32,000 bases of DNA from Candidatus Saccharimonadota bacterium (GTDB lineage: Bacteria; Patescibacteriota; Microgenomatia; UBA1406; GWC2-37-13), in contig CP066689.1 of assembly GCA_016432445.1 (NCBI GenBank), positions 690,001-722,000 of the forward strand. Direction: 5' to 3'. The notes beneath the pieces are model-generated. The model did no database searches and was not told the DNA's origin. It was given only the letters and a program-made list of their open reading frames with translations. Made by a program: the position numbers and the translations under genes. This document shows positions 6,032 to 28,555 of this stretch, piece by piece; position 1 is the stretch's first letter, and every line of letters begins with the position of its first letter.

Positions 6032-7548
6032 TTTTTTAAGAGTTTGATCCTGGCTCAGGATGAACGCTAGCGGTGTGCCTGAGATATGCAAGTCGAGCGT
6101 CCCCGCCGCAAGGCGGGGTAGTGGCGGACGGCTGAGTAATATATAGGAACCTGCCTTTTTCTGGAGGATAGCCCCGCGAAAGCGGGGGTAATACTTCATG
6201 GTCCAGATACCATCTGGTACCTGGTAAAGGACGTAACTGTCCGGAAAAAGATGGGCCTATATTCTATCAGGTAGTTGGTAGGGTAATGGCCTACCAAGCC
6301 TATGACGGATAGCTGGTTTGAGAGGACGACCAGCCAGAGGGGGACTGAGACACGGCCCCCACTCCTACGGGAGGCAGCAATCAGGAATAGTCGGCAATGG
6401 GCGAAAGCCTGACCGCGCGACACCGCGTGCGGGATGAAGGTCTAAACGATCGTAAACCGCTGTGGTAGGGGAAGAAGTAGGCCATTGGCCTATTGACGGT
6501 ACCCTACTAGAAAGGAGCCGCTAACTGCGTGCCAGAAGCGTCGGTAATACGTGGGCTTCAAGCGTTATCCGGTTTTACTGGGCGTAAAAGGTCGTGTAGG
6601 CGGTTTGATAAGTTATCTCTTAAATTTTCTCGCTCAACGAGAAGCTTGGAGATAATACTATCAAACTTGAGTTTTCTTAAGGGAGACTGGAACTGAGGGA
6701 GGAGTAGTGAAATGCGTTGATACCCTCGGGAACACCAGTGGCGAAGGCGAGTCTCTGGAAGGAAACTGACGCTGAGACACGAAAGCTAGGGGAGCGAAGC
6801 AGATTAGAGACCTGCGTAGTCCTAGCCCTAAACGAATGCCTGCTGGCTGCATGGTTTCCCGACTTTGTCGAGGATTTCGTGTGGCGAAGGTAACCCGTTA
6901 AGCAGGCCGCCTGGGGAGTACGACCGCAAGGTTAAAACTCAAAGGAATTGGCGGGGAGGCACACAACCAGTGGAACATGTGGTTCAATTCGATACGAACC
7001 GAAGAACCTCACCAGGGCTTGAAATCCAAGCGTCCTATCCCGAGGAAACTCGGGAAATTCGCAAGAAGGTTTGGACAGGTACTGCATGGCTGTCGTCAGT
7101 TCGTTCCGTGAGGAGTGCCCTTAAGTGGGACAACGAACGCAACCCCTATCTTGTGTTAAATTTGTCACAAGAGACTGCCCCGCCTATGGCGGGGAGGAAG
7201 GAGGGGCAGACGTCAAGTCAGCATGGTCCTTATGCCCTGGGCTACACACATGTTACAATGAATAAAACAACGGGCTTTGCAAACGCGCAAGTGTAAGCAA
7301 ATCCCTTAAATTTATTCTCAGTGGGGATTGAGGTCTGCAACTCGACCTCATGAACGCGGAATTGGTAGTAATCGCGGATCAGCTATGCCGCGGTGAATAC
7401 GTTCTTGCCTCTTGCACACACCGCCCGTCAAGCCAACAAAGTCGGTGGCATTTGAACCCCGCTCAGCGGGGGAGAATTTCATCGGCGATGAGGGTTAAGT
7501 CGTAACAAGGTATCCGTTCTGGAAGGAGCGGATGGATCACCTCCTTTC
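6032..7548 (+). rRNA. rrs: 16S ribosomal RNA (about 1.5 kb, no large insertion)
   Basis: AGAGTTTGATCCTGGCTCAG at 6039. ACTCCTACGGGAGGCAGCA is present. CACACCGCCCGTCA is present. AAGTCGTAACAAGGTATCC...GGATCACCTCCTTTCT ends near 7548. The ends are approximate to a few nt. Confidence 0.95.
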
Positions 7549-7633
7549 TTTTTTTTTAAAAAGAAAAAAATCGTTTTTGAGCGAGACGATTCATAAAATT
7601 CGTTCAAAGTGAAACTTTAGGAATCCGCCTGTT

Positions 7634-7649
7634 GGGGATCCTAACCCGA
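7634..7649 (+). promoter_or_regulatory. 3' strand of 16S precursor processing stem
   Basis: Complementary to 5991-6007 (see that feature). Confidence 0.6.
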
Positions 7650-7684
7650 TTATTGGTCTAAAACTAACTCATAAAAATAAAGAA

Positions 7685-8926
7685 TTAAAAACCAAGCAGT
7701 TTTCCAAAACCTCCAAGCAAAGCAGCAATAGTAATTGCTACACCTGATACTATTAATAGTATATTTTGTACTTTATTATTTTTATAACTTCCCATCAGTT
7801 CTTCACTGTTGGCTAATTTGTATAAAAAGAAGAAAATCACAGGCAACATAAGTCCATTCAAAAAGTCCGCATAAAGAGTAATATTAAACAAAGATATATT
7901 AGGAAACCAAATAAATATCGTTCCTAAAATAATCTGCAGAAGAAAAAAACCATAAAAGAATTTACTTTTATCCAAACTTGTATCAAGACTTCCTTCATAA
8001 CCAAAAAACTCCGAAAAAGCATAAGCGGTAGCCAAGGGAACTATTGCTAAACCCAAAAAACCAGCAATTAAAAGTCCTACACCAAAAAACGTACTAGCTA
8101 ATGCACCAGCCACAGGCTTAATAGCAAGTGCCGCATCTGCCGCTCCAGTAATTTGAATACCGTTAACAAAAATTGTTGCTATAACAGCAACCATCATAAA
8201 CAAAGAAAACAGGTCTGTTAGAAATGCACCTGCATAAATTTCTAACCGCTGGTACTTGAGTTTTTCAGGAGTAATCTTTTTATCTTTAATATAACTATTG
8301 ATAAAAAATTGTCCCCAGGCCGTAACAGTTGTTCCAAGAACAGCAACTGAGGTATAAAGATAATCAAATGATATTCCGTCTGGAGGTCTCAAAAGTGATC
8401 TTCCAGTAAGGGCCCAATCAGGCTTGGACAAGAGTGCGGAAAAGAAGTAGGCAAGATAAAAGAGTATTAAAAAGAGAAAAAATCTTTCAATTTTAGTGAA
8501 AGATGATCTAATAATGAATAAAAATAAGAATCCAACAAGCAAAGGCAAAAATATACGGTAATCAAGCTGAAATAAGGTTAACGCTGATTTTAAACCTCCA
8601 AGGTTTTGCAAAATAACTCCAAAATTCACGATAAACAAAAGTAAAAACATAAACAAAGCTATTCTTATTCCATATTTCTCGCGTATCAAATCACCTAAAC
8701 CTTTGCCAGTTACAACTGCAATTCTGGCACCAATTTCCTGAGTAATCATAAGAACTATTGTTATTGGTATTAACGTAGTCAGCATTGAGTATCCAAACTT
8801 AGAAGCAGCAACCGAATAAGTTGCAACACCTCCAGCATCATTATCGGCAAACGCAGTAATCAAACCCGGACCGACAACAGCTATTAGAATTAGAAAACGC
8901 CTTTTGAAATGATAAAAAAAATTCAT
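7685..8926 (-). CDS. Nramp/SLC11-related transporter with non-canonical metal-site motifs (NRMT-like, possible Mg2+ transporter)
   Basis: 413 aa, polytopic. It aligns without gaps to MntH TM1 (GPGLITAFADNDAGGVAT against GPAVIASIAYMDPGNFAT) and TM6 (GTTVTAWGQ against GATVMPHVI). DPGN is therefore replaced by DAGG, and MPH by TAW. Confidence 0.75.
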   Translation of the reverse strand: MNFFYHFKRRFLILIAVVGPGLITAFADNDAGGVATYSVAASKFGYSMLTTLIPITIVLMITQEIGARIAVVTGKGLGDLIREKYGIRIALFMFLLLFIVNFGVILQNLGGLKSALTLFQLDYRIFLPLLVGFLFLFIIRSSFTKIERFFLFLILFYLAYFFSALLSKPDWALTGRSLLRPPDGISFDYLYTSVAVLGTTVTAWGQFFINSYIKDKKITPEKLKYQRLEIYAGAFLTDLFSLFMMVAVIATIFVNGIQITGAADAALAIKPVAGALASTFFGVGLLIAGFLGLAIVPLATAYAFSEFFGYEGSLDTSLDKSKFFYGFFLLQIILGTIFIWFPNISLFNITLYADFLNGLMLPVIFFFLYKLANSEELMGSYKNNKVQNILLIVSGVAITIAALLGGFGKLLGF

Positions 8927-8932
8927 TTTATA

Positions 8933-10144
8933 TTACCTTAATCTTCCAAAAACAATTTCTGGTAAATCATCAAATGCAACTATCCCCAGTACATGCCTGT
9001 TTTGATCTATAATAGGCACTGCATTTAATTTATATTTAAACATTTTTGCCAAGGCTATTTCTTTAGGTGTAGTTAGATGAATAACAATCGCATTTTGTGT
9101 CATAAATTTGTAGACGGGTGTATCTAAATTTTGAAGTATCATCTCATGAAGACTAAAAACTCCAACTAGTTTATCTTCTTTGTTTAACACATAAATATAA
9201 TTAAGGAATGAAAAATCAGCCGCTTCTTTTTTAATCTTTGATATAACTTCTTTGACAAGAGTATCAGGAGTTGCAGTTAAAAACTGTGTTGTCATTTTTT
9301 CACCAATTGGTGACTGTGACATTTTAAACAAATGCCTTAACTCTTTTTGTTTCCCAGTGTTAAGAAGGAAAAGAATCTCTTCCCTTTTTTTCTCTGATAA
9401 AGTTAGAAGTATATCTACGGCTTCATCAGGATCTATAATTGAAACAACATGAGCGGCTTTCTCTGGTGAAAACTGTTTAAAGATAGCGCTCTGGTAATTA
9501 ATATTTAAATTCTTGATAATATCAACTGCAAAATCTTCATCCAGCGATTTTAGGATTCTATCTGCATTGACAATATTAATTTTCTCAAGATAATCGGCTA
9601 AATCTTCCGGTCTTATTTTCTTAAGTTTATCTTGTTCTGTCTTTAAGATCACCATGCCTCGTGCAAGCTCAAGCGGCTGAATATCAGCCCATGATAAAAA
9701 TTTAGAGGTTATTTTTACTCCAAAATTGATCAAAATACGTGAAATCATATCTTCAATTCCCAGTCTCCTTAAAATGCCCAAGATACCAATGTCAGCGCCG
9801 GCAATATAATATCCTGGGCGATCGTTTATGGCAACGTCATTAACCCTAACAACTTTATTCCCTTCAATATCAATGATTTGTTGATCCAACAGATTTTTAT
9901 TAAGTAGCAGTTCCTGATTAGTGATATTTTGACTCTCAAACTGCTTACTGATAATTATCTGATGATTAATTGACTCAATAGTTGAAGAGGGAATATTCAG
10001 GTAGTTATTTTCTTTATCTTTCACTATGAGTTTGGTTATTTTTGGGGTATCAGAAACGAGAAAAGCAAGATCTTCAAGTTTTCCTACAAAAACACGGTCC
10101 TCTGTACATACTTGTTTTCCTTTCAGCTCGGAAAAATAAAGCAT
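8933..10144 (-). CDS. soluble PRC-barrel + MgtE N-terminal domain + CBS-pair protein (no MgtE membrane domain)
   Basis: 403 aa. N-terminal PRC-barrel-like repeats are followed by an MgtE_N-like helical region (DLADYLEKI...DPDEAVDILLTL) and then two CBS motifs. There are no hydrophobic segments. It lies 6 nt upstream of the Nramp-like gene on the same strand. Confidence 0.7.
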   Translation of the reverse strand: MLYFSELKGKQVCTEDRVFVGKLEDLAFLVSDTPKITKLIVKDKENNYLNIPSSTIESINHQIIISKQFESQNITNQELLLNKNLLDQQIIDIEGNKVVRVNDVAINDRPGYYIAGADIGILGILRRLGIEDMISRILINFGVKITSKFLSWADIQPLELARGMVILKTEQDKLKKIRPEDLADYLEKINIVNADRILKSLDEDFAVDIIKNLNINYQSAIFKQFSPEKAAHVVSIIDPDEAVDILLTLSEKKREEILFLLNTGKQKELRHLFKMSQSPIGEKMTTQFLTATPDTLVKEVISKIKKEAADFSFLNYIYVLNKEDKLVGVFSLHEMILQNLDTPVYKFMTQNAIVIHLTTPKEIALAKMFKYKLNAVPIIDQNRHVLGIVAFDDLPEIVFGRLR

Positions 10145-10200
10145 AAATGGATTATACCTCTTATATATTAGTACTTCAACCTCTATAAAATTGCTACTTA

Positions 10201-10209
10201 TGCTATAAT
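10201..10209 (+). promoter_or_regulatory. extended -10 promoter element TGCTATAAT upstream of tRNA cluster
   Basis: TGnTATAAT match 48 nt upstream of the first tRNA. The identical 9-mer recurs at 29464-29472. Confidence 0.4.
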
Positions 10210-10256
10210 TTAGTCGACCGTTTATAAACCATAGATAATAATCTATAAACTATTTT

Positions 10257-10457
10257 GGGTGTGTGGCTCAGTGGTAGAGCGCGTTCCTGACCCGCCCGCC
10301 TTGACTTCGCGGTCAAGGGCAATTGGCTCAGTGGTAGAGCGTCGTCCTGATAAGACGAAGGTCGGAGGTTCGATCCCTCCATTGCCCACATTGGAACGTC
10401 AAGGCGAAGTCGGGCGCGGTAAGAACGAGGTCCCAGGTTCGATCCATGGCACACCCA
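10257..10457 (+). tRNA. interrupted tRNA gene (Val-GAC or Ile-GAU depending on junction) whose 129-nt intervening sequence contains a whole tRNA-Ile
   Basis: The 5' part at 10257-10291 reads GGGTGTG TG GCTCAGTGGTAGAGC G CGTTC CTGAC. The 3' part at 10421-10457 reads AA GAACG AGGTC CCAGG TTCGATC CATGG CACACCC A. Together they give a 72-nt cloverleaf with perfect acceptor and anticodon stems. The only flaw is one G:A mismatch in the T stem. Confidence 0.6.
10317..10388 (+). tRNA. tRNA-Ile (anticodon GAU)
   Basis: GGGCAAT TG GCTC AGTGGTA GAGC G TCGTC CTGATAA GACGA AGGTC GGAGG TTCGATC CCTCC ATTGCCC A. The cloverleaf is perfect. C4-G69 and A73 are present. CCA is not encoded. Confidence 0.9.
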
Positions 10458-10478
10458 CCCTTCGCCTAAATACCAATT

Positions 10479-10552
10479 GGACCCGTGGCTCAGTTGGTTA
10501 GAGCGCCTCGTTTACATCGAGGAGGTCATAGGTTCGAGTCCTATCGGGTCCA
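10479..10552 (+). tRNA. tRNA-Val (anticodon UAC)
   Basis: GGACCCG TG GCTC AGTTGGTTA GAGC G CCTCG TTTACAT CGAGG AGGTC ATAGG TTCGAGT CCTAT CGGGTCC A. The cloverleaf is perfect. Confidence 0.9.
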
Positions 10553-10618
10553 CTCTGGCTAGAGCGGTCCGACGTTACGTCGGACATGTTGGGGGTTCGA
10601 AACCTTCAGCGGCCACCA
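10553..10618 (+). pseudogene. 5'-truncated tRNA-like element (T arm, acceptor 3' strand and encoded CCA, but no acceptor 5' strand)
   Basis: Starts directly after tRNA-Val. Reads ...TGGCTAGAGC G GTCCGACGTTACGTCGGAC ATGTT GGGGG TTCGAAA CCTTC AGCGGCC A CCA. There is no GGCCGCT partner upstream. The D arm is about 8 nt too short. The anticodon arm is a perfect 19-nt palindrome. Confidence 0.5.
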
Positions 10619-10629
10619 AAGGACTCTAC

Positions 10630-11664
10630 TTATTTTTCCAGCGTGTAGACTGGAATTTGGTCAAAGTAGCGATGTTTCCAACCGTAATCAACCTGCAGAC
10701 AATCTACTAAGGAAAAGCCATTCTCAATAGCTTCCTTAAACTCATAGTAAAGAAGAAAGTTGCCAATGCCTTTGAATCGATCAAGATCATTACCTCCCTT
10801 AACCATGTAATATTTGTCTTTATACGTTATAACTAAATCAATAGCGGCTAAGTGTTTTTGTATATGTATTTCAACAAACTGAGTTTTATAAACACCAGAA
10901 TTTTTTATGATATTCCTATATGTCCTCAATCTATCTTTATCCAAAAGATCGCTTTCATCGTCTAGTCTGGTACTAAAACGTAAGATATTCATCTTAGCTA
11001 ACTTATCAAAGTGTTTATCATTGTTTGTTTTAATAACTTTTACGCGCGGATTCAAACCTTCTATTCGGTAATAATCAGCTTTAAGGTTATAGCGATCTTT
11101 TTTATCAAAACTTTGCAATAACTCATCCATTGAGTTAACTTGACTTATATCTTTTAAATTTTTCGGATCGTCATATTTAAGTTGGTTAAATATCTTTTTT
11201 TTACTCCAGTCCGAGTTAACTTCAATAGCATTGAGGAGTAGAGGATTAGGTGCAATCTCAAACAGTACATCTATTAGCTTTTCGTCTTTCACAAAGAAAG
11301 TGTTATCTTCCATCCAATCACTACCAAACCATAAATATTTTTTTCGATGCTTACTGTACCACAAAGGTAATACCCCAAGAGGTTTCTGTCTTTCATACAA
11401 TGTATAAAAATAGGGCTGATATCCATACCCCTGATACCAGGCAAAACGAAAATCCCAAAGGTCAAATAATGATTTTTTAGGCGAGAATTCTTCCCATAAA
11501 GTAAAACATTCTTCAATATTTGAATGTACTTTCACTGTTAAGCGAGGAATTAGTTTTGATAAACCATTCCTATAAAAATAATTATTTTCTTGATTTTTGG
11601 GAATATAATGCAGTAGCGGTATAGAGATTACGTTTCCTGGTGGTTCTGTATCTGAAATTTCCAT
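10630..11664 (-). CDS. GNAT-fold acetyltransferase-like protein (CelD/BcsL / FemAB-like family)
   Basis: 344 aa. The C-terminal region (KGIGNFLLYYEFKEAIENGFSLVDCLQVDYGWKHRY) resembles the CelD-type GNAT domain. Assignment is by resemblance only. Confidence 0.45.
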   Translation of the reverse strand: MEISDTEPPGNVISIPLLHYIPKNQENNYFYRNGLSKLIPRLTVKVHSNIEECFTLWEEFSPKKSLFDLWDFRFAWYQGYGYQPYFYTLYERQKPLGVLPLWYSKHRKKYLWFGSDWMEDNTFFVKDEKLIDVLFEIAPNPLLLNAIEVNSDWSKKKIFNQLKYDDPKNLKDISQVNSMDELLQSFDKKDRYNLKADYYRIEGLNPRVKVIKTNNDKHFDKLAKMNILRFSTRLDDESDLLDKDRLRTYRNIIKNSGVYKTQFVEIHIQKHLAAIDLVITYKDKYYMVKGGNDLDRFKGIGNFLLYYEFKEAIENGFSLVDCLQVDYGWKHRYFDQIPVYTLEK

Positions 11665-25556: not shown

Positions 25557-25636
25557 GTTTGTTTCGAGCAATCGCCAGGATTCCCTTTCAGGATGCGCCT
25601 GCCTGCCGGCAGGCAGGGCGGCGAGAAACAAATATT
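25557..25636. repeat. GC-rich palindromic intergenic element
   Basis: The arms TGTTTGTTTCGAGCAATCGCC and GGCGGCGAGAAACAAATA enclose the near-perfect palindrome GCCTGCCTGCCGGCAGGCAGGGC. Confidence 0.6.
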
Positions 25637-27339: not shown

Positions 27340-27581
27340 GTTTTAATTATATACCACACCTCTTTAATTTTCTCAGGCATTGCTTTCAAATGCTCAATTA
27401 AAGTAATTAAAGTGAGGATGAACTAGAAAAAGCATTCTTATTTTTATCGCACTTTTACAAAACGGGAAAGCTAATTCATCCAGCTAGGTTACATATCAAA
27501 ATTTTACGTATGTGCGCTTAATGGGTGAATAAAGTGTATGTGCGATCAGGATAGATAACTTCAAAAGAAAGGAAAAGAGAC

Positions 27582-27743
27582 ATGCCCGTATATGACGATA
27601 GGACAGTACCTACTCAACCGGCAGGTTGCACTTGCAAGGGTCTTGGCACTTGCCCATACTGCAGGTCAACAAGAATCCGGCCACTAGGTCAACGACCCAT
27701 CGGAGATAAGCCAACGCCACCTGGCCGGCGAATCGTCTGCTAA
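27582..27743 (+). CDS. small Cys-rich protein (53 aa), cassette 0
   Basis: Below the size cutoff of the track. SD GAAAGGAAAAGAG sits 2 nt before the ATG. Sequence MPVYDDRTVPTQPAGCTCKGLGTCPYCRSTRIRPLGQRPIGDKPTPPGRRIVC. Codon composition is G+C-rich, unlike the host genes. Confidence 0.55.
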   Translation: MPVYDDRTVPTQPAGCTCKGLGTCPYCRSTRIRPLGQRPIGDKPTPPGRRIVC

Positions 27744-27818
27744 AGTAACGCAAACCGCTGAGACTTGAGAGAAATCACCCACTCTTAAGTCTTTTGCGGC
27801 AAAAGGAAAGGATGCAAT

Positions 27819-27986
27819 ATGACACCAGTTCTAGCAACAACGCTAAACTATGCAGTTAACACATTCTACATCTTGGTAGCCATCATTGTTGCCGCTATCG
27901 CCCTTGCTTTCATCATTGTAGCAGGATACCTCTTTTGCGTAATCATCCTCCTGGATGAACTGGGTATACTGCGCTTTGGAGACTAG
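27819..27986 (+). CDS. small hydrophobic protein (55 aa, TM segment plus acidic tail), cassette 0
   Basis: SD AAAGGAAAGGA before the ATG. Sequence MTPVLATTLNYAVNTFYILVAIIVAAIALAFIIVAGYLFCVIILLDELGILRFGD. Confidence 0.55.
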   Translation: MTPVLATTLNYAVNTFYILVAIIVAAIALAFIIVAGYLFCVIILLDELGILRFGD

Positions 27987-27990
27987 ACTG

Positions 27991-28076
27991 TACTTTCCCG
28001 TACATACGGCGGATTTGGTGAGATTGGTCCAACGTGACCCATGCTCTGCATGTAAAAAATCTTAACCAAATCCGCC
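27991..28076 (+). other. conserved three-way-junction element E1 (end of cassette 0)
   Basis: ACTTTCCCG lead-in. The 18-bp closing stem pairs GGCGGATTTGGTGAGATT with AATCTTAACCAAATCCGCC. Inner hairpins are GGTC-CAACGT-GACC and CATGC-TCT-GCATG. Homologous to E2 and E3. Confidence 0.65.
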
Positions 28077-28350
28077 GCCTCAATTCTCTCACATAACTAA
28101 TTTATTCATTAAAAGATATTTTGATCTACTATGAGCTATTGATTTTAAAAATTTAAAAGATTAATATCAGCACAATATGGAGAGGTTATCTTCAAAAAGG
28201 GTCTTTTTTGCATCCTTGGCTAGAGAGTCTCTCCTTTTTTTGTGCCTTTAATTATGCTCTAAAAGCATAGAGCCTAAACTAAAAGGCGCACTTTAATAAA
28301 AAGGGAAAGTCAAATCGCCCGCCCAAAAATAACAGGGGAAAAGAGAAAAT

Positions 28351-28416
28351 AAATCCAAATGTCAAAATTCAAATTTCAAAATTTTATTTGACATTTGTCA
28401 TTTGAACTTTGGATTT
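28351..28416. repeat. phased heptamer hairpin spacer, CAAAT family
   Basis: TCCAAAT GTCAAAA TTCAAAT TTCAAAA TTTTATT TGACATT TGTCATT TGAACTT TGGATTT. Confidence 0.8.
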
Positions 28417-28428
28417 CGTTTGTTTTCT

Positions 28429-28531
28429 TCTTGTCCCTGTTATCGGATAACTTAAGAAAAAGATACCGGATGTATCTTTAACTACCCCTAAAGTAGTTTG
28501 CAAGTTATGGGATGGACGATAAAGGGGACTT
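28429..28531 (+). promoter_or_regulatory. structured 5' leader of cassette A (conserved with cassette B)
   Basis: GTCCCTGTTATCG (28433-28445) pairs with CGATAAAGGGGAC (28517-28529). ATAACTT pairs with AAGTTAT. Two inner hairpins are AGATA...TATCT and AACTAC...GTAGTT. The leader ends 25 nt before the ATG. Confidence 0.5.
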
Positions 28532-28555
28532 GATGACCGGGTATGAGGAGGCCAT

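Follow-up and report, generated by a model that had tools for sequence, protein, structure and literature searches.

The locus considered here lies in a 32-kb window, by which we mean the whole analyzed stretch of 32,000 nucleotides of contig CP066689.1 (positions 690,001 to 722,000) from a bacterium of the Candidate Phyla Radiation (CPR), and consists of one isoleucine transfer RNA (tRNA) gene lying inside another. A 129-bp insert (10291–10419) separates anticodon nucleotides 35 and 36 of the outer tRNA-Ile(GAU). All parts of the nest are on the forward strand. The 5′ half of the outer gene (10257–10290) comprises the acceptor strand GGGTGTG, the D-arm, the anticodon-stem strand CGTTC and loop nucleotides 32–35 (CTGA), and its 3′ half (10420–10457) comprises loop nucleotides 36–38 (TAA), the stem strand GAACG, the variable loop, the T-arm, the acceptor strand CACACCC and the discriminator A. 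The insert opens with a 5′ arm, CCCGCCCGCCTTGAC (10291–10305), whose proximal part belongs to the CCYGCCYGCC family described below and whose distal 9 nt pair with 10398–10406. A 5′ linker, TTCGCGGTCAA (10306–10316), leads into the inner tRNA-Ile(GAU) (10317–10388), a 72-nt gene with no encoded CCA that is recognized by ARAGORN and scores 73.9 bits with the Rfam tRNA model. This is followed by a 3′ linker, CATTGGAAC (10389–10397), unpaired in the preferred fold, and by the 3′ arm, GTCAAGGCGAAGTCGGGCGCGG (10398–10419), an imperfect inverted repeat of the 5′ arm that has a 6-nt and a 1-nt bulge in that fold. The end of the 5′ linker and the opening GG of the inner tRNA together spell GTCAAGG (10312–10318), a direct repeat of 10398–10404.

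The nesting of one tRNA in another had been read from the sequence in the original prediction, whose quoted bases and coordinates (CTGA at 10287–10290, GCGG at 10416–10419, CCC at 10291–10293 and TAA at 10420–10422) are all correct, and it is borne out by ARAGORN, by Rfam and by the outer halves themselves: joining 10257–10290 to 10420–10459 gives a clean cloverleaf with the loop CTGATAA of a tRNA-Ile(GAU), and the outer acceptor strands TGGGTGTG and CACACCCA were recovered as an inverted-repeat pair. The junction of the joined halves would read GCGCGTTCCTGATAAGAACGAGGTCCCAGG (GAGCGCGTTCCTGATAAGAACGAGGTCCCAGG). Exact removal of 10291–10419 leaves a CUGAUAA loop, the same as that of the inner gene and of the tRNA-Ile of another locus (L052; loci and contigs from other assemblies are referred to by such numbers), which is uninterrupted and has the same body as the outer gene (CGTTC CTGATAA GAACG). 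ARAGORN reports the inner gene alone when introns may start from 0 nt. When an intron of at least 1 nt is required, it finds the outer gene, with 10256–10460 as the tRNA and 129 nt as the length of its intron, but chooses a Thr(GGU) junction, which we rejected because the outer body matches the tRNA-Ile of L052. The outer and inner genes differ at 20 of 74 positions, all of them in stems and all compensated but one, a G52 x A62 opposition in the outer T-stem. Once the insert is removed, the outer loops are canonical and 16 of the 17 acceptor, anticodon and T-stem pairs are intact (7, 5 and 4, respectively), and all 17 are intact in the inner gene. Two other sequencing runs, assembled independently in Logan (L001 and L002), give a region that is 100% identical, and this base-for-base agreement indicates that the nested arrangement is real and no artefact of assembly.

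As had been predicted, the flanks of the inner gene are complementary to each other, and we find that this goes beyond chance: a perfect 9-bp run between them arises in 0.44% of 20,000 composition-preserving shuffles (p ~0.004), and the energy of the flank duplex is −27.6 kcal/mol as compared to −18.8 ± 3.7 in shuffled sequences (p ~0.02). Two registers had been proposed, and their pairings were read correctly. Register 1 combines GCCC (10294–10297) and GGGC (10412–10415) with an 8-bp helix of GACTTCGC (10303–10310) and GCGAAGTC (10404–10411), and register 2 is a 9-bp helix of CGCCTTGAC (10297–10305) and GTCAAGGCG (10398–10406); both the 8-bp and the 9-bp helix are also listed by an inverted-repeat search. 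A third competing pairing, a local 7-bp hairpin of CCTTGAC and GTCAAGG (10299–10305 and 10312–10318), has an ensemble probability of about zero, and the three are mutually exclusive. Folding with and without constraints, the check suggested at the time, confirms that the flanks pair and thereby bring the outer halves together, but prefers register 2. With both cloverleaves enforced, the fold with register 2 and a basal helix (CGCC/GGCG, CC/GG and A35-U36) reaches −74.0 kcal/mol, that with register 1 −65.1 and that without flank pairing −44.7. In the unconstrained ensemble, the 9-bp helix of register 2 has a probability of about 0.99 and the A35-U36 pair one of 0.81, and register 2 is also the one in the minimum-energy fold (−84.5 kcal/mol, z = −2.8). 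As a separate observation, AGGCGAAG in the 3′ arm (10402–10409) is complementary to CTTCGCCT just past the outer tRNA (10460–10467). This alternative pairing would bracket the outer 3′ half and is possibly left over from arms by which the outer gene was once flanked.

Register 1 had been drawn as a 5-3-4-3-4 arrangement, i.e., the bulge-helix-bulge (BHB) splicing motif of archaea and eukaryotes. The layout can indeed be drawn from the quoted bases, but it is neither a stable nor a conserved fold. It lies 9 kcal/mol above register 2, its central helix (C-G, U.G, G-C, A x G) has two Watson–Crick pairs, one G.U and one mismatch, and the ensemble probabilities are 0.002 for its three central pairs and 0.003 for the 8-bp helix. 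Its product is likewise implausible: BHB cleavage would leave the loop CUGACCA, with an anticodon GAC on a tRNA-Ile body and C at positions 36 and 37, the latter an oddity that the prediction itself had pointed out. Across the 25 nested cases that we could parse (see below), a 3-4-3 layout compatible with a 7-nt loop recurs in L050, L060, L074 and L012, solely within the same arm family and inconsistently with the anticodons, since the resulting loops have C36 and C37, and Thr or Ile anticodons become those of Ala or Val. The drawing recurs because the arms of this family all begin with CC and end with GG before TAA.

The nested design is found well beyond this genome. We scanned genomes, one per species, for two identical GCTCAGTGGTAGAGC D-arms 25–55 nt apart, a spacing that is impossible for ordinary tandem tRNA genes. 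Matches came from 75 species genomes, mostly Patescibacteria (CPR), spanning Saccharibacteria, Levy-, Roizman-, Lipton-, Niyogi-, Yanofsky-, Giovannoni-, Jorgensen- and Azambacteria, WWE3 and Kazan, along with some Ignavibacteriota, Armatimonadota and others. Several of the matches, being simple partial duplications or assembly loops, were set aside. A complete inner tRNA between halves with complementary acceptor strands was parsed in 25 cases at 23 loci, and the isotype of the inner and outer gene is identical in the pairs read. The insert lies between positions 31 and 32 in tRNA-Phe loci, between 35 and 36 in the window, L071, L074, L066, L050, L060 and L012, between 37 and 38 in L026, L063, L007 and L017, in the D-loop of a tRNA-Leu (L021) and in the T-loop of a tRNA-Arg (L005) and a tRNA-Leu (L077). 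Leader–trailer complementarity of at least 9 bp is present in 34 of the 184 tRNAs of nested loci as compared to none of 184 shuffled controls. No tRNA gene interrupted by a hairpin alone in its anticodon loop was found among the fetched loci, a set selected for nested D-arms, and a scan of viral contigs found no nested pattern. A metagenome scan with the 5′ junction of the window, GGTAGAGCGCGTTCCTGACC, yielded four matches, all of which were discarded as chance occurrences in high-GC coding DNA.

Some loci are more elaborate, with multi-layer nests and orphan 3′ halves (L059 at 800–1350, L039 and L011), and a 3′ arm stands directly before each orphan half. At L059:1030–1160 and L077:1631–1768, such orphans form strings, every one of them behind a 3′ arm (e.g., TTTAACAGGG-CAAGT or TTTGGCGGGG-CAAGT), with no matching 5′ halves nearby; they could be either relics of outer layers whose 5′ parts have been deleted or candidates for split tRNAs. 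Outside the CPR or at its edge (L040:7252–7480, L045, L006, L057, L020, L025 and L076), tRNA-like fragments adjoin a normal, similar tRNA. These keep the acceptor strand, D-arm and T-arm and have a short perfect hairpin in place of the anticodon arm (e.g., TCCCGAC-CTAC-GTCGGGA). One of them comes from a cultured strain of the Bacteroidota, Chryseosolibacter indicus. Such fragments could have been left by the same process, or they could form an element class of their own.

The arms that bracket the inner genes fall into families. Family A (TTYAC-CCCCGTTAGA ... TCTAACGGGG-CARG) surrounds Val, Met and Leu genes, and family B (CCYGCCYGCC ... GGCRGGCRGG), to which the window arms CCCGCCCGCC ... GGGCGCGG belong, surrounds Ile, Thr and Val genes. 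Further families are C (CCCCGCACC), E (CCCCCACACC), an AT-rich one and one of the form GTCC(C)GAY ... RTCGGGAC. The inverted-repeat ends of families A, B, C and E recur at different tRNAs and in different CPR lineages, as in miniature inverted-repeat transposable elements (MITEs). The junction sequences are conserved within arm families, unlike those of archaeal BHB introns. Family-B inserts are preceded by a purine and followed by T (R/CC...GG/U, with slashes marking the junctions), and their removal restores an exact 7-nt loop in all 11 loci read (the window, L071, L074, L066, L050, L060, L012, L026, L007, L063 and L017). After removal of a family-A or Met-type insert, the loop has 3, 5 or 9 nucleotides, so that no simple excision restores the outer gene; in the CCCCGTTAGA family 5 or 9 remain although the outer stems are intact. 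Mismatches within the arms comprise 5 G.T, 9 A.C and 13 others; although the counts are small, the lack of a G.U excess points to a palindrome at the DNA level, since selection for an RNA helix would favor G.U.

Members of the window-arm family also exist as solo palindromes. One of them, the perfect 20-mer CCTGCCTGCCGGCAGGCAGG, lies in the window itself (25598–25617, no strand assigned), between the genes for RNase J and RecR. An identical copy occurs at L030:2242, in a genome of the Elusimicrobia, and 35 stretches of viral contigs contain the 20-mer as well, up to six times in a single contig. In L115, a copy interrupts a tRNA-Met precisely within its variable loop, and ARAGORN reads a normal 72-nt tRNA when that copy is taken out. 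Related solo hairpins occur in the tRNA spacers of the relatives L082 and L126, and also in L060. The genes beside multi-copy palindromes in phage contigs code for structural phage proteins only and include no transposase; nor is there a transposase among the open reading frames (ORFs) of the window. There is no target-site duplication at the window junctions (CTGA/.../TAA), and only in the AT-rich family (L055, L078 and L079) is a TA duplication possible. Several familiar identities for the palindromes were considered and rejected: integron attC sites, in which the core sites have the opposite order; targeting of the IS200/IS605 type at TTAC or TTCAC, as this motif travels with the element and not with the target; DNA uptake sequences, as the density of the motif is too low; and, for the 20-mer, a sequencing adapter, as independent samples have it within tRNA genes that are continuous but for this insertion. 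The sequence CCTGCCTGCCGGCAGGCAGG has no match in searchable papers.

To compare the state of inner and outer genes, we scored the acceptor (7), anticodon (5) and T-stem (5) pairs, with a maximum of 17; the null distribution peaks at 12 and reaches at least 15 in about 1% of random cases. Acceptor complementarity alone was dropped as a criterion for an outer 3′ half, as 97% of random cases pass it. Inner genes score 17 in 54 of 64 cases and 16 in the other 10, whereas a contiguous outer 3′ half scoring at least 15 was found in only 22 of 64 (nine perfect, eight with 16 and five with 15). Elsewhere, one outer half is missing altogether (e.g., L005, L010 and L034), and L071, with junctions like those of the window (CTGA/CC...GG/TAA GAACG), has mismatched outer acceptor strands (GGGCACA versus TACACCC). 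Such an asymmetry is what one would expect if the inner gene is the working one. In four tRNA-Phe loci (L021, L023, L027 and L032), a two-insert design is shared, the arms covary, and the outer acceptor stems are perfect and mutually different. Furthermore, inner and outer genes of a genome often share the D-arm and the anticodon stem exactly and differ in the acceptor and T-stems. The perfect outer genes, the tRNA-Phe design and the shared D-arms and anticodon stems can be explained by recent events, rapid deletion of relics, gene conversion or a long-term function of both genes.

The history of the locus can be followed in relatives, which we found via the adjacent gene for an MgtE_N/CBS protein and for which we give the identity of that protein. 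L080, L082 and L126 (66–69%) have an uninterrupted tRNA-Ile of another sequence type (with a TAGTTTAATGGTAAAAC D-arm) behind a TGnTATAAT promoter, followed by a tRNA-Val (GGCCGCT...AGCGGCC), and the contig ends of L128 and L129 (62–64%) carry the 5′ part of a tRNA-Ile of this TAGTTTAATGGTAAAAC type. In L086 (68%), the older tRNA-Ile of this type is truncated in its D-loop by a newer one, whose anticodon arm (TCGTC CTGATAA GACGA) equals that of the inner gene of the window, and a scrap of the older T-arm comes after it. L085 (73%) has a fragment of that older gene (...GGTTAGTTTA) just upstream of a gene that is identical to the outer 5′ half of the window over its first 30 nt, with the contig ending 4 nt short of the junction. 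The insertions in L085 and L086 have no clear arms. For filled and empty sites, the comparison comprises the uninterrupted gene of the same body in L052, the other tRNA-Ile types of the syntenic relatives and the closest relative, L085, which stops before the junction. A tRNA-Val relic is present too: alignment with L082, L080 and L126 reveals the 3′ two-thirds of an ancestral tRNA-Val(UAC) at 10556–10618 (forward strand), which has an encoded CCA end, lacks the 5′ acceptor strand and has lost half of its D-arm. It shares TGGCTAGAGCG and ATGTTGGGGGTTCGA..CC.TCAGCGGCCAC with L082, its anticodon arm has been replaced by a near-perfect palindrome, GTCCGACGT-T-ACGTCGGAC (10567–10585), and the stretch 10556–10618 matched no Rfam family. 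The truncated older genes in L086, L085 and the window indicate that the locus has undergone successive replacements, each of which left remains. A matching remnant, GTCCGATAACTATCGGAC, with a compensated stem change, was also noticed in a tRNA-Ile-derived piece in L052.

Taking these observations together, we propose, with a probability that we put at about one half, that a palindrome-armed tRNA-Ile unit was inserted at the DNA level into the anticodon of the resident tRNA-Ile gene, leaving the inner gene as the functional one and the outer halves as relics. The agent would be a mobile or recombinogenic palindrome. The cluster would then be transcribed from the promoter of the old gene, and the arms of the transcript would pair in register 2, extended up to A35-U36, closing off the inner tRNA as a domain of its own. 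From this, RNase P and the 3′-end machinery (the inner gene having no encoded CCA) would cut out the working tRNA-Ile, and the outer halves, as remains of the previous resident gene, would not be rejoined but would be headed for decay and deletion. More generally, we posit a recurrent process in the CPR in which an incoming tRNA gene, usually bracketed by a palindrome, takes the place of a resident gene of the same isotype by inserting into one of the latter's loops. Several points weigh against this proposal. About a third of the outer genes look fully foldable, and their acceptor and T-stems differ from those of the inner genes by compensated changes. The tRNA-Phe set could mean that outer genes are kept by selection and hence spliced. 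The exact 7-nt loop is restored in all eleven family-B loci read, the identity of the D-arm and anticodon stem within a genome needs gene conversion or self-duplication, and the mismatch spectrum of the arms consists of small counts. Finally, neither the window nor the surroundings of the phage palindromes yielded a transposase or recombinase, and no target-site duplication of fixed length was found.

Three of the alternatives take the arrangement as genuine, two of them at the level of RNA. The reading put forward in the original prediction, an archaeal-type BHB motif in the flanks that would be cut by an EndA-like endonuclease and sealed by an RtcB-type ligase, appears very improbable to us. 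The layout is drawable in the window and, similarly, in L050, L060, L074 and L012, but it fails on its energy and the near absence of its central pairs from the ensemble, on a product that changes the anticodon both here and in the other loci, and on comparison, the insert positions and sequence-conserved junctions being unlike those of BHB introns; moreover, a Pfam scan of the window found no EndA-like endonuclease, RtcB or other RNA ligase among its 28 ORFs. An RNA intron of a kind new to bacteria is a different matter, though still an unlikely one in our estimate. Here, a CPR endonuclease would recognize the base of the GC-rich helix and a ligase would rejoin the halves; the intron would begin with CC and end with GG, the flanking purine and U can pair, and one transcript would give two tRNA-Ile, with RNase P and RNase Z releasing the inner one from the excised intron. 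Put more broadly, it is conceivable but doubtful that CPR bacteria possess a protein-dependent tRNA splicing that removes helix-flanked inserts (R/CC...GG/U and related families), some of these introns having captured a second tRNA. Splicing of this kind would account for the exact loops and conserved junctions of family B, for the many outer genes with perfect stems that differ from the inner ones by compensated pairs only, for the covarying arms and intact outer stems of the four two-insert tRNA-Phe loci and for the placement of hairpin inserts in the loops and not the stems of outer genes (L055, L059 and L023). It sits poorly with the far commoner damage in outer than in inner genes, with the broken outer gene of L071 despite its window-like junctions, and with the CCCCGTTAGA and Met-type loci, in which no excision gives a usable loop. 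Likewise, a shared isotype means that the outer gene is never needed in the pairs read, the arms exist as solo DNA palindromes both between genes and in phages and have no G.U excess, the window has no gene for a splicing enzyme, and the relics in relatives at this locus are truncated, not merely interrupted.

A further possibility, to which we give a similarly small share, dispenses with a dedicated element: illegitimate or microhomology-mediated recombination would have placed a copy of an arm–tRNA–arm unit within a paralogous or homeologous tRNA gene, for example after foreign DNA had been taken up or the DNA had broken at a palindrome, with the arms being native complementary leaders and trailers, i.e., processing stems carried along. 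The flanks of the outer gene itself are complementary too in L079 and L055, and in L079 they equal the inner arms; short direct repeats within the arms bracket inner genes in the manner of microhomology joints (GTCAAGG at 10312 and 10398 in the window, CCAGA in L050 and ACGAG in L026); inner and outer sequences are the same in several nests (L018, L073 and L079), which points to self-duplication; and the insertions of L085 and L086, with no clear arms, fall in line with this. On the other hand, most ordinary tRNAs of these loci have no such flanks. The same arms (TTYAC-CCCCG...CGGGG-CARG and CCYGCCYGCC) bracket different isotypes in distant CPR lineages and occur as solo palindromes in unrelated DNA, including that of phages, which better fits an element with an identity of its own. 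An artefact of assembly or binning from the repeated D-arm sequence is what some of the scan matches do resemble, looking like collapsed or looped repeats or containing runs of N (L008, L019, L028, L076 and L079), but for the window its likelihood is negligible in view of the two identical assemblies from other runs, a shared repeat of just 18 nt and the presence of the architecture in dozens of genomes with different sequences.

Several known systems resemble the locus in part. Like the window, the archaeal BHB, split and permuted tRNA genes processed by EndA and RtcB (Nanoarchaeum, Thermoproteales and Cyanidioschyzon) are interrupted in or near the anticodon loop and have complementary sequences that join the halves, and like the nested CPR loci they may have several inserts per gene at non-canonical positions. 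A passage in the meeting report PMC10714607, citing Fujishima et al. 2010, states that tRNA introns of the Thermoproteales have transposed from one tRNA into multiple others. The present loci differ from the archaeal ones in their bacterial host, the absence of a convincing 3-4-3 motif, their family-conserved junctions, an insert that is a whole tRNA of the same isotype and an outer gene that is often decayed. Group I introns interrupt the anticodon loops of bacterial tRNAs, namely cyanobacterial tRNA-Leu(UAA) and tRNA-fMet, the tRNA-Ile of Azoarcus and the tRNA-Arg of Agrobacterium. With these the window shares the interrupted loop and a final intron base G (G10419). However, its 5′ exon ends in A10290 and not in U, and at 129 nt, 72 of which are tRNA, the insert is far too small for a P1–P9 catalytic core, P3–P9 taking up about 200 nt or more; no Rfam intron family matched the insert at the gathering threshold or at E-values up to 10.

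Intervening sequences of ribosomal RNA (rRNA) and leader–trailer processing stems are cut by RNase III without religation. As in the window, a flanking helix brackets a functional RNA and the inner product needs no ligation, but here the host is a tRNA gene and the helix of 9–14 bp is shorter than typical RNase III substrates. Short palindromic mobile repeats include the repetitive extragenic palindromic (REP) and REPIN elements with their RAYT transposases, MITEs and hairpin-dependent derivatives of IS200/IS605. The arms resemble these in being GC-rich, multicopy and mostly intergenic palindromes that form families and have solo copies; they differ in that no associated transposase was found, insertion is precise, no target duplication is fixed, tRNA loops are preferred and many copies carry a full tRNA gene. 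Finally, integrative elements that target tRNA genes through attP and attB supply a replacement for the 3′ part of the tRNA. They too insert into tRNA genes, often in the anticodon or the T-loop, and bring in DNA that restores the function of the tRNA, but they are kilobases long, encode an integrase, have direct repeats and displace the 3′ part only, whereas the window insert is 129 bp long with inverted arms and a whole tRNA.

To our knowledge, archaea and one red alga account for most of the tRNA genes known to be disrupted, nested or multi-layered, and self-splicing group I introns are the only accepted tRNA introns of bacteria. Searchable papers yielded no relevant description, whether of tRNA introns in bacteria or the CPR, of tRNA genes that are nested or interrupted, or of the palindrome sequence, and the study of CPR ribosomes by Tsurumaki et al. 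2022 does not discuss tRNA genes. A tRNA within a tRNA of the same isotype, bracketed by palindrome families, is a recurrent and apparently undescribed design in the CPR. If the DNA-level replacement is true, it would amount to a fast and previously unnoticed turnover of tRNA genes in ultra-small genomes, along with a palindromic element that targets tRNA loops. If instead the outer genes are spliced, they would represent the first case of enzyme-dependent tRNA splicing in bacteria, a counterpart of the archaeal disrupted tRNA genes with different recognition rules. There is also a consequence for annotation, as standard tRNA finders give the inner gene alone or mis-assign the outer one (Thr(GGU) in the window and Glu(UUC) in several tRNA-Val-like loci).

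The surroundings of the nest are those of a low-GC bacterial contig, the window having a GC content of 35%. The tRNA cluster is bordered on the left by the divergent gene for the MgtE_N/CBS protein (8933–10144, minus strand), to which the identical named entry is from Candidatus Roizmanbacteria, a CPR (Microgenomates) lineage, and on the right by a GNAT-family gene (10630–11664, minus strand). Ahead of the nest, we read from the sequence a probable extended −10 promoter element, TGCTATAAT (10201–10209, forward strand), which probably drives the entire cluster. A TGnTATAAT motif is also present upstream of the tRNA-Ile gene in L086, L126/L127, L128, L129, L082 and L085, and the element was missed by a consensus scanner because the latter requires a −35 hexamer. 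Between the nest and the tRNA-Val remnant lies an intact tRNA-Val(UAC) (10479–10552, forward strand; ARAGORN and Rfam), the newer such gene of the cluster. RNase J and YbeY are also encoded in the window.

Farther upstream, Rfam identifies a 16S rRNA gene at 6032–7547, and no 23S or 5S rRNA was found within the 32-kb window. The region downstream of the 16S gene (7548–10256) does not follow the order of tRNA-Ile/Ala and 23S; instead, two transporter-related genes on the opposite strand precede the tRNA cluster. These (7685–10144, minus strand) code for the MgtE_N/CBS protein, which has a PRC-barrel and no membrane domain, and then for an Nramp transporter, and they are also found in the relatives L080 and L082, which suggests a two-gene unit for metal transport and its regulation conserved in Roizmanbacteria. 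Elsewhere in the window, a stretch of about 1.2 kb (27340–28550) has no ORF of at least 80 amino acids and no Rfam match at the gathering threshold, and its GC content of 0.40 is above that of its surroundings.

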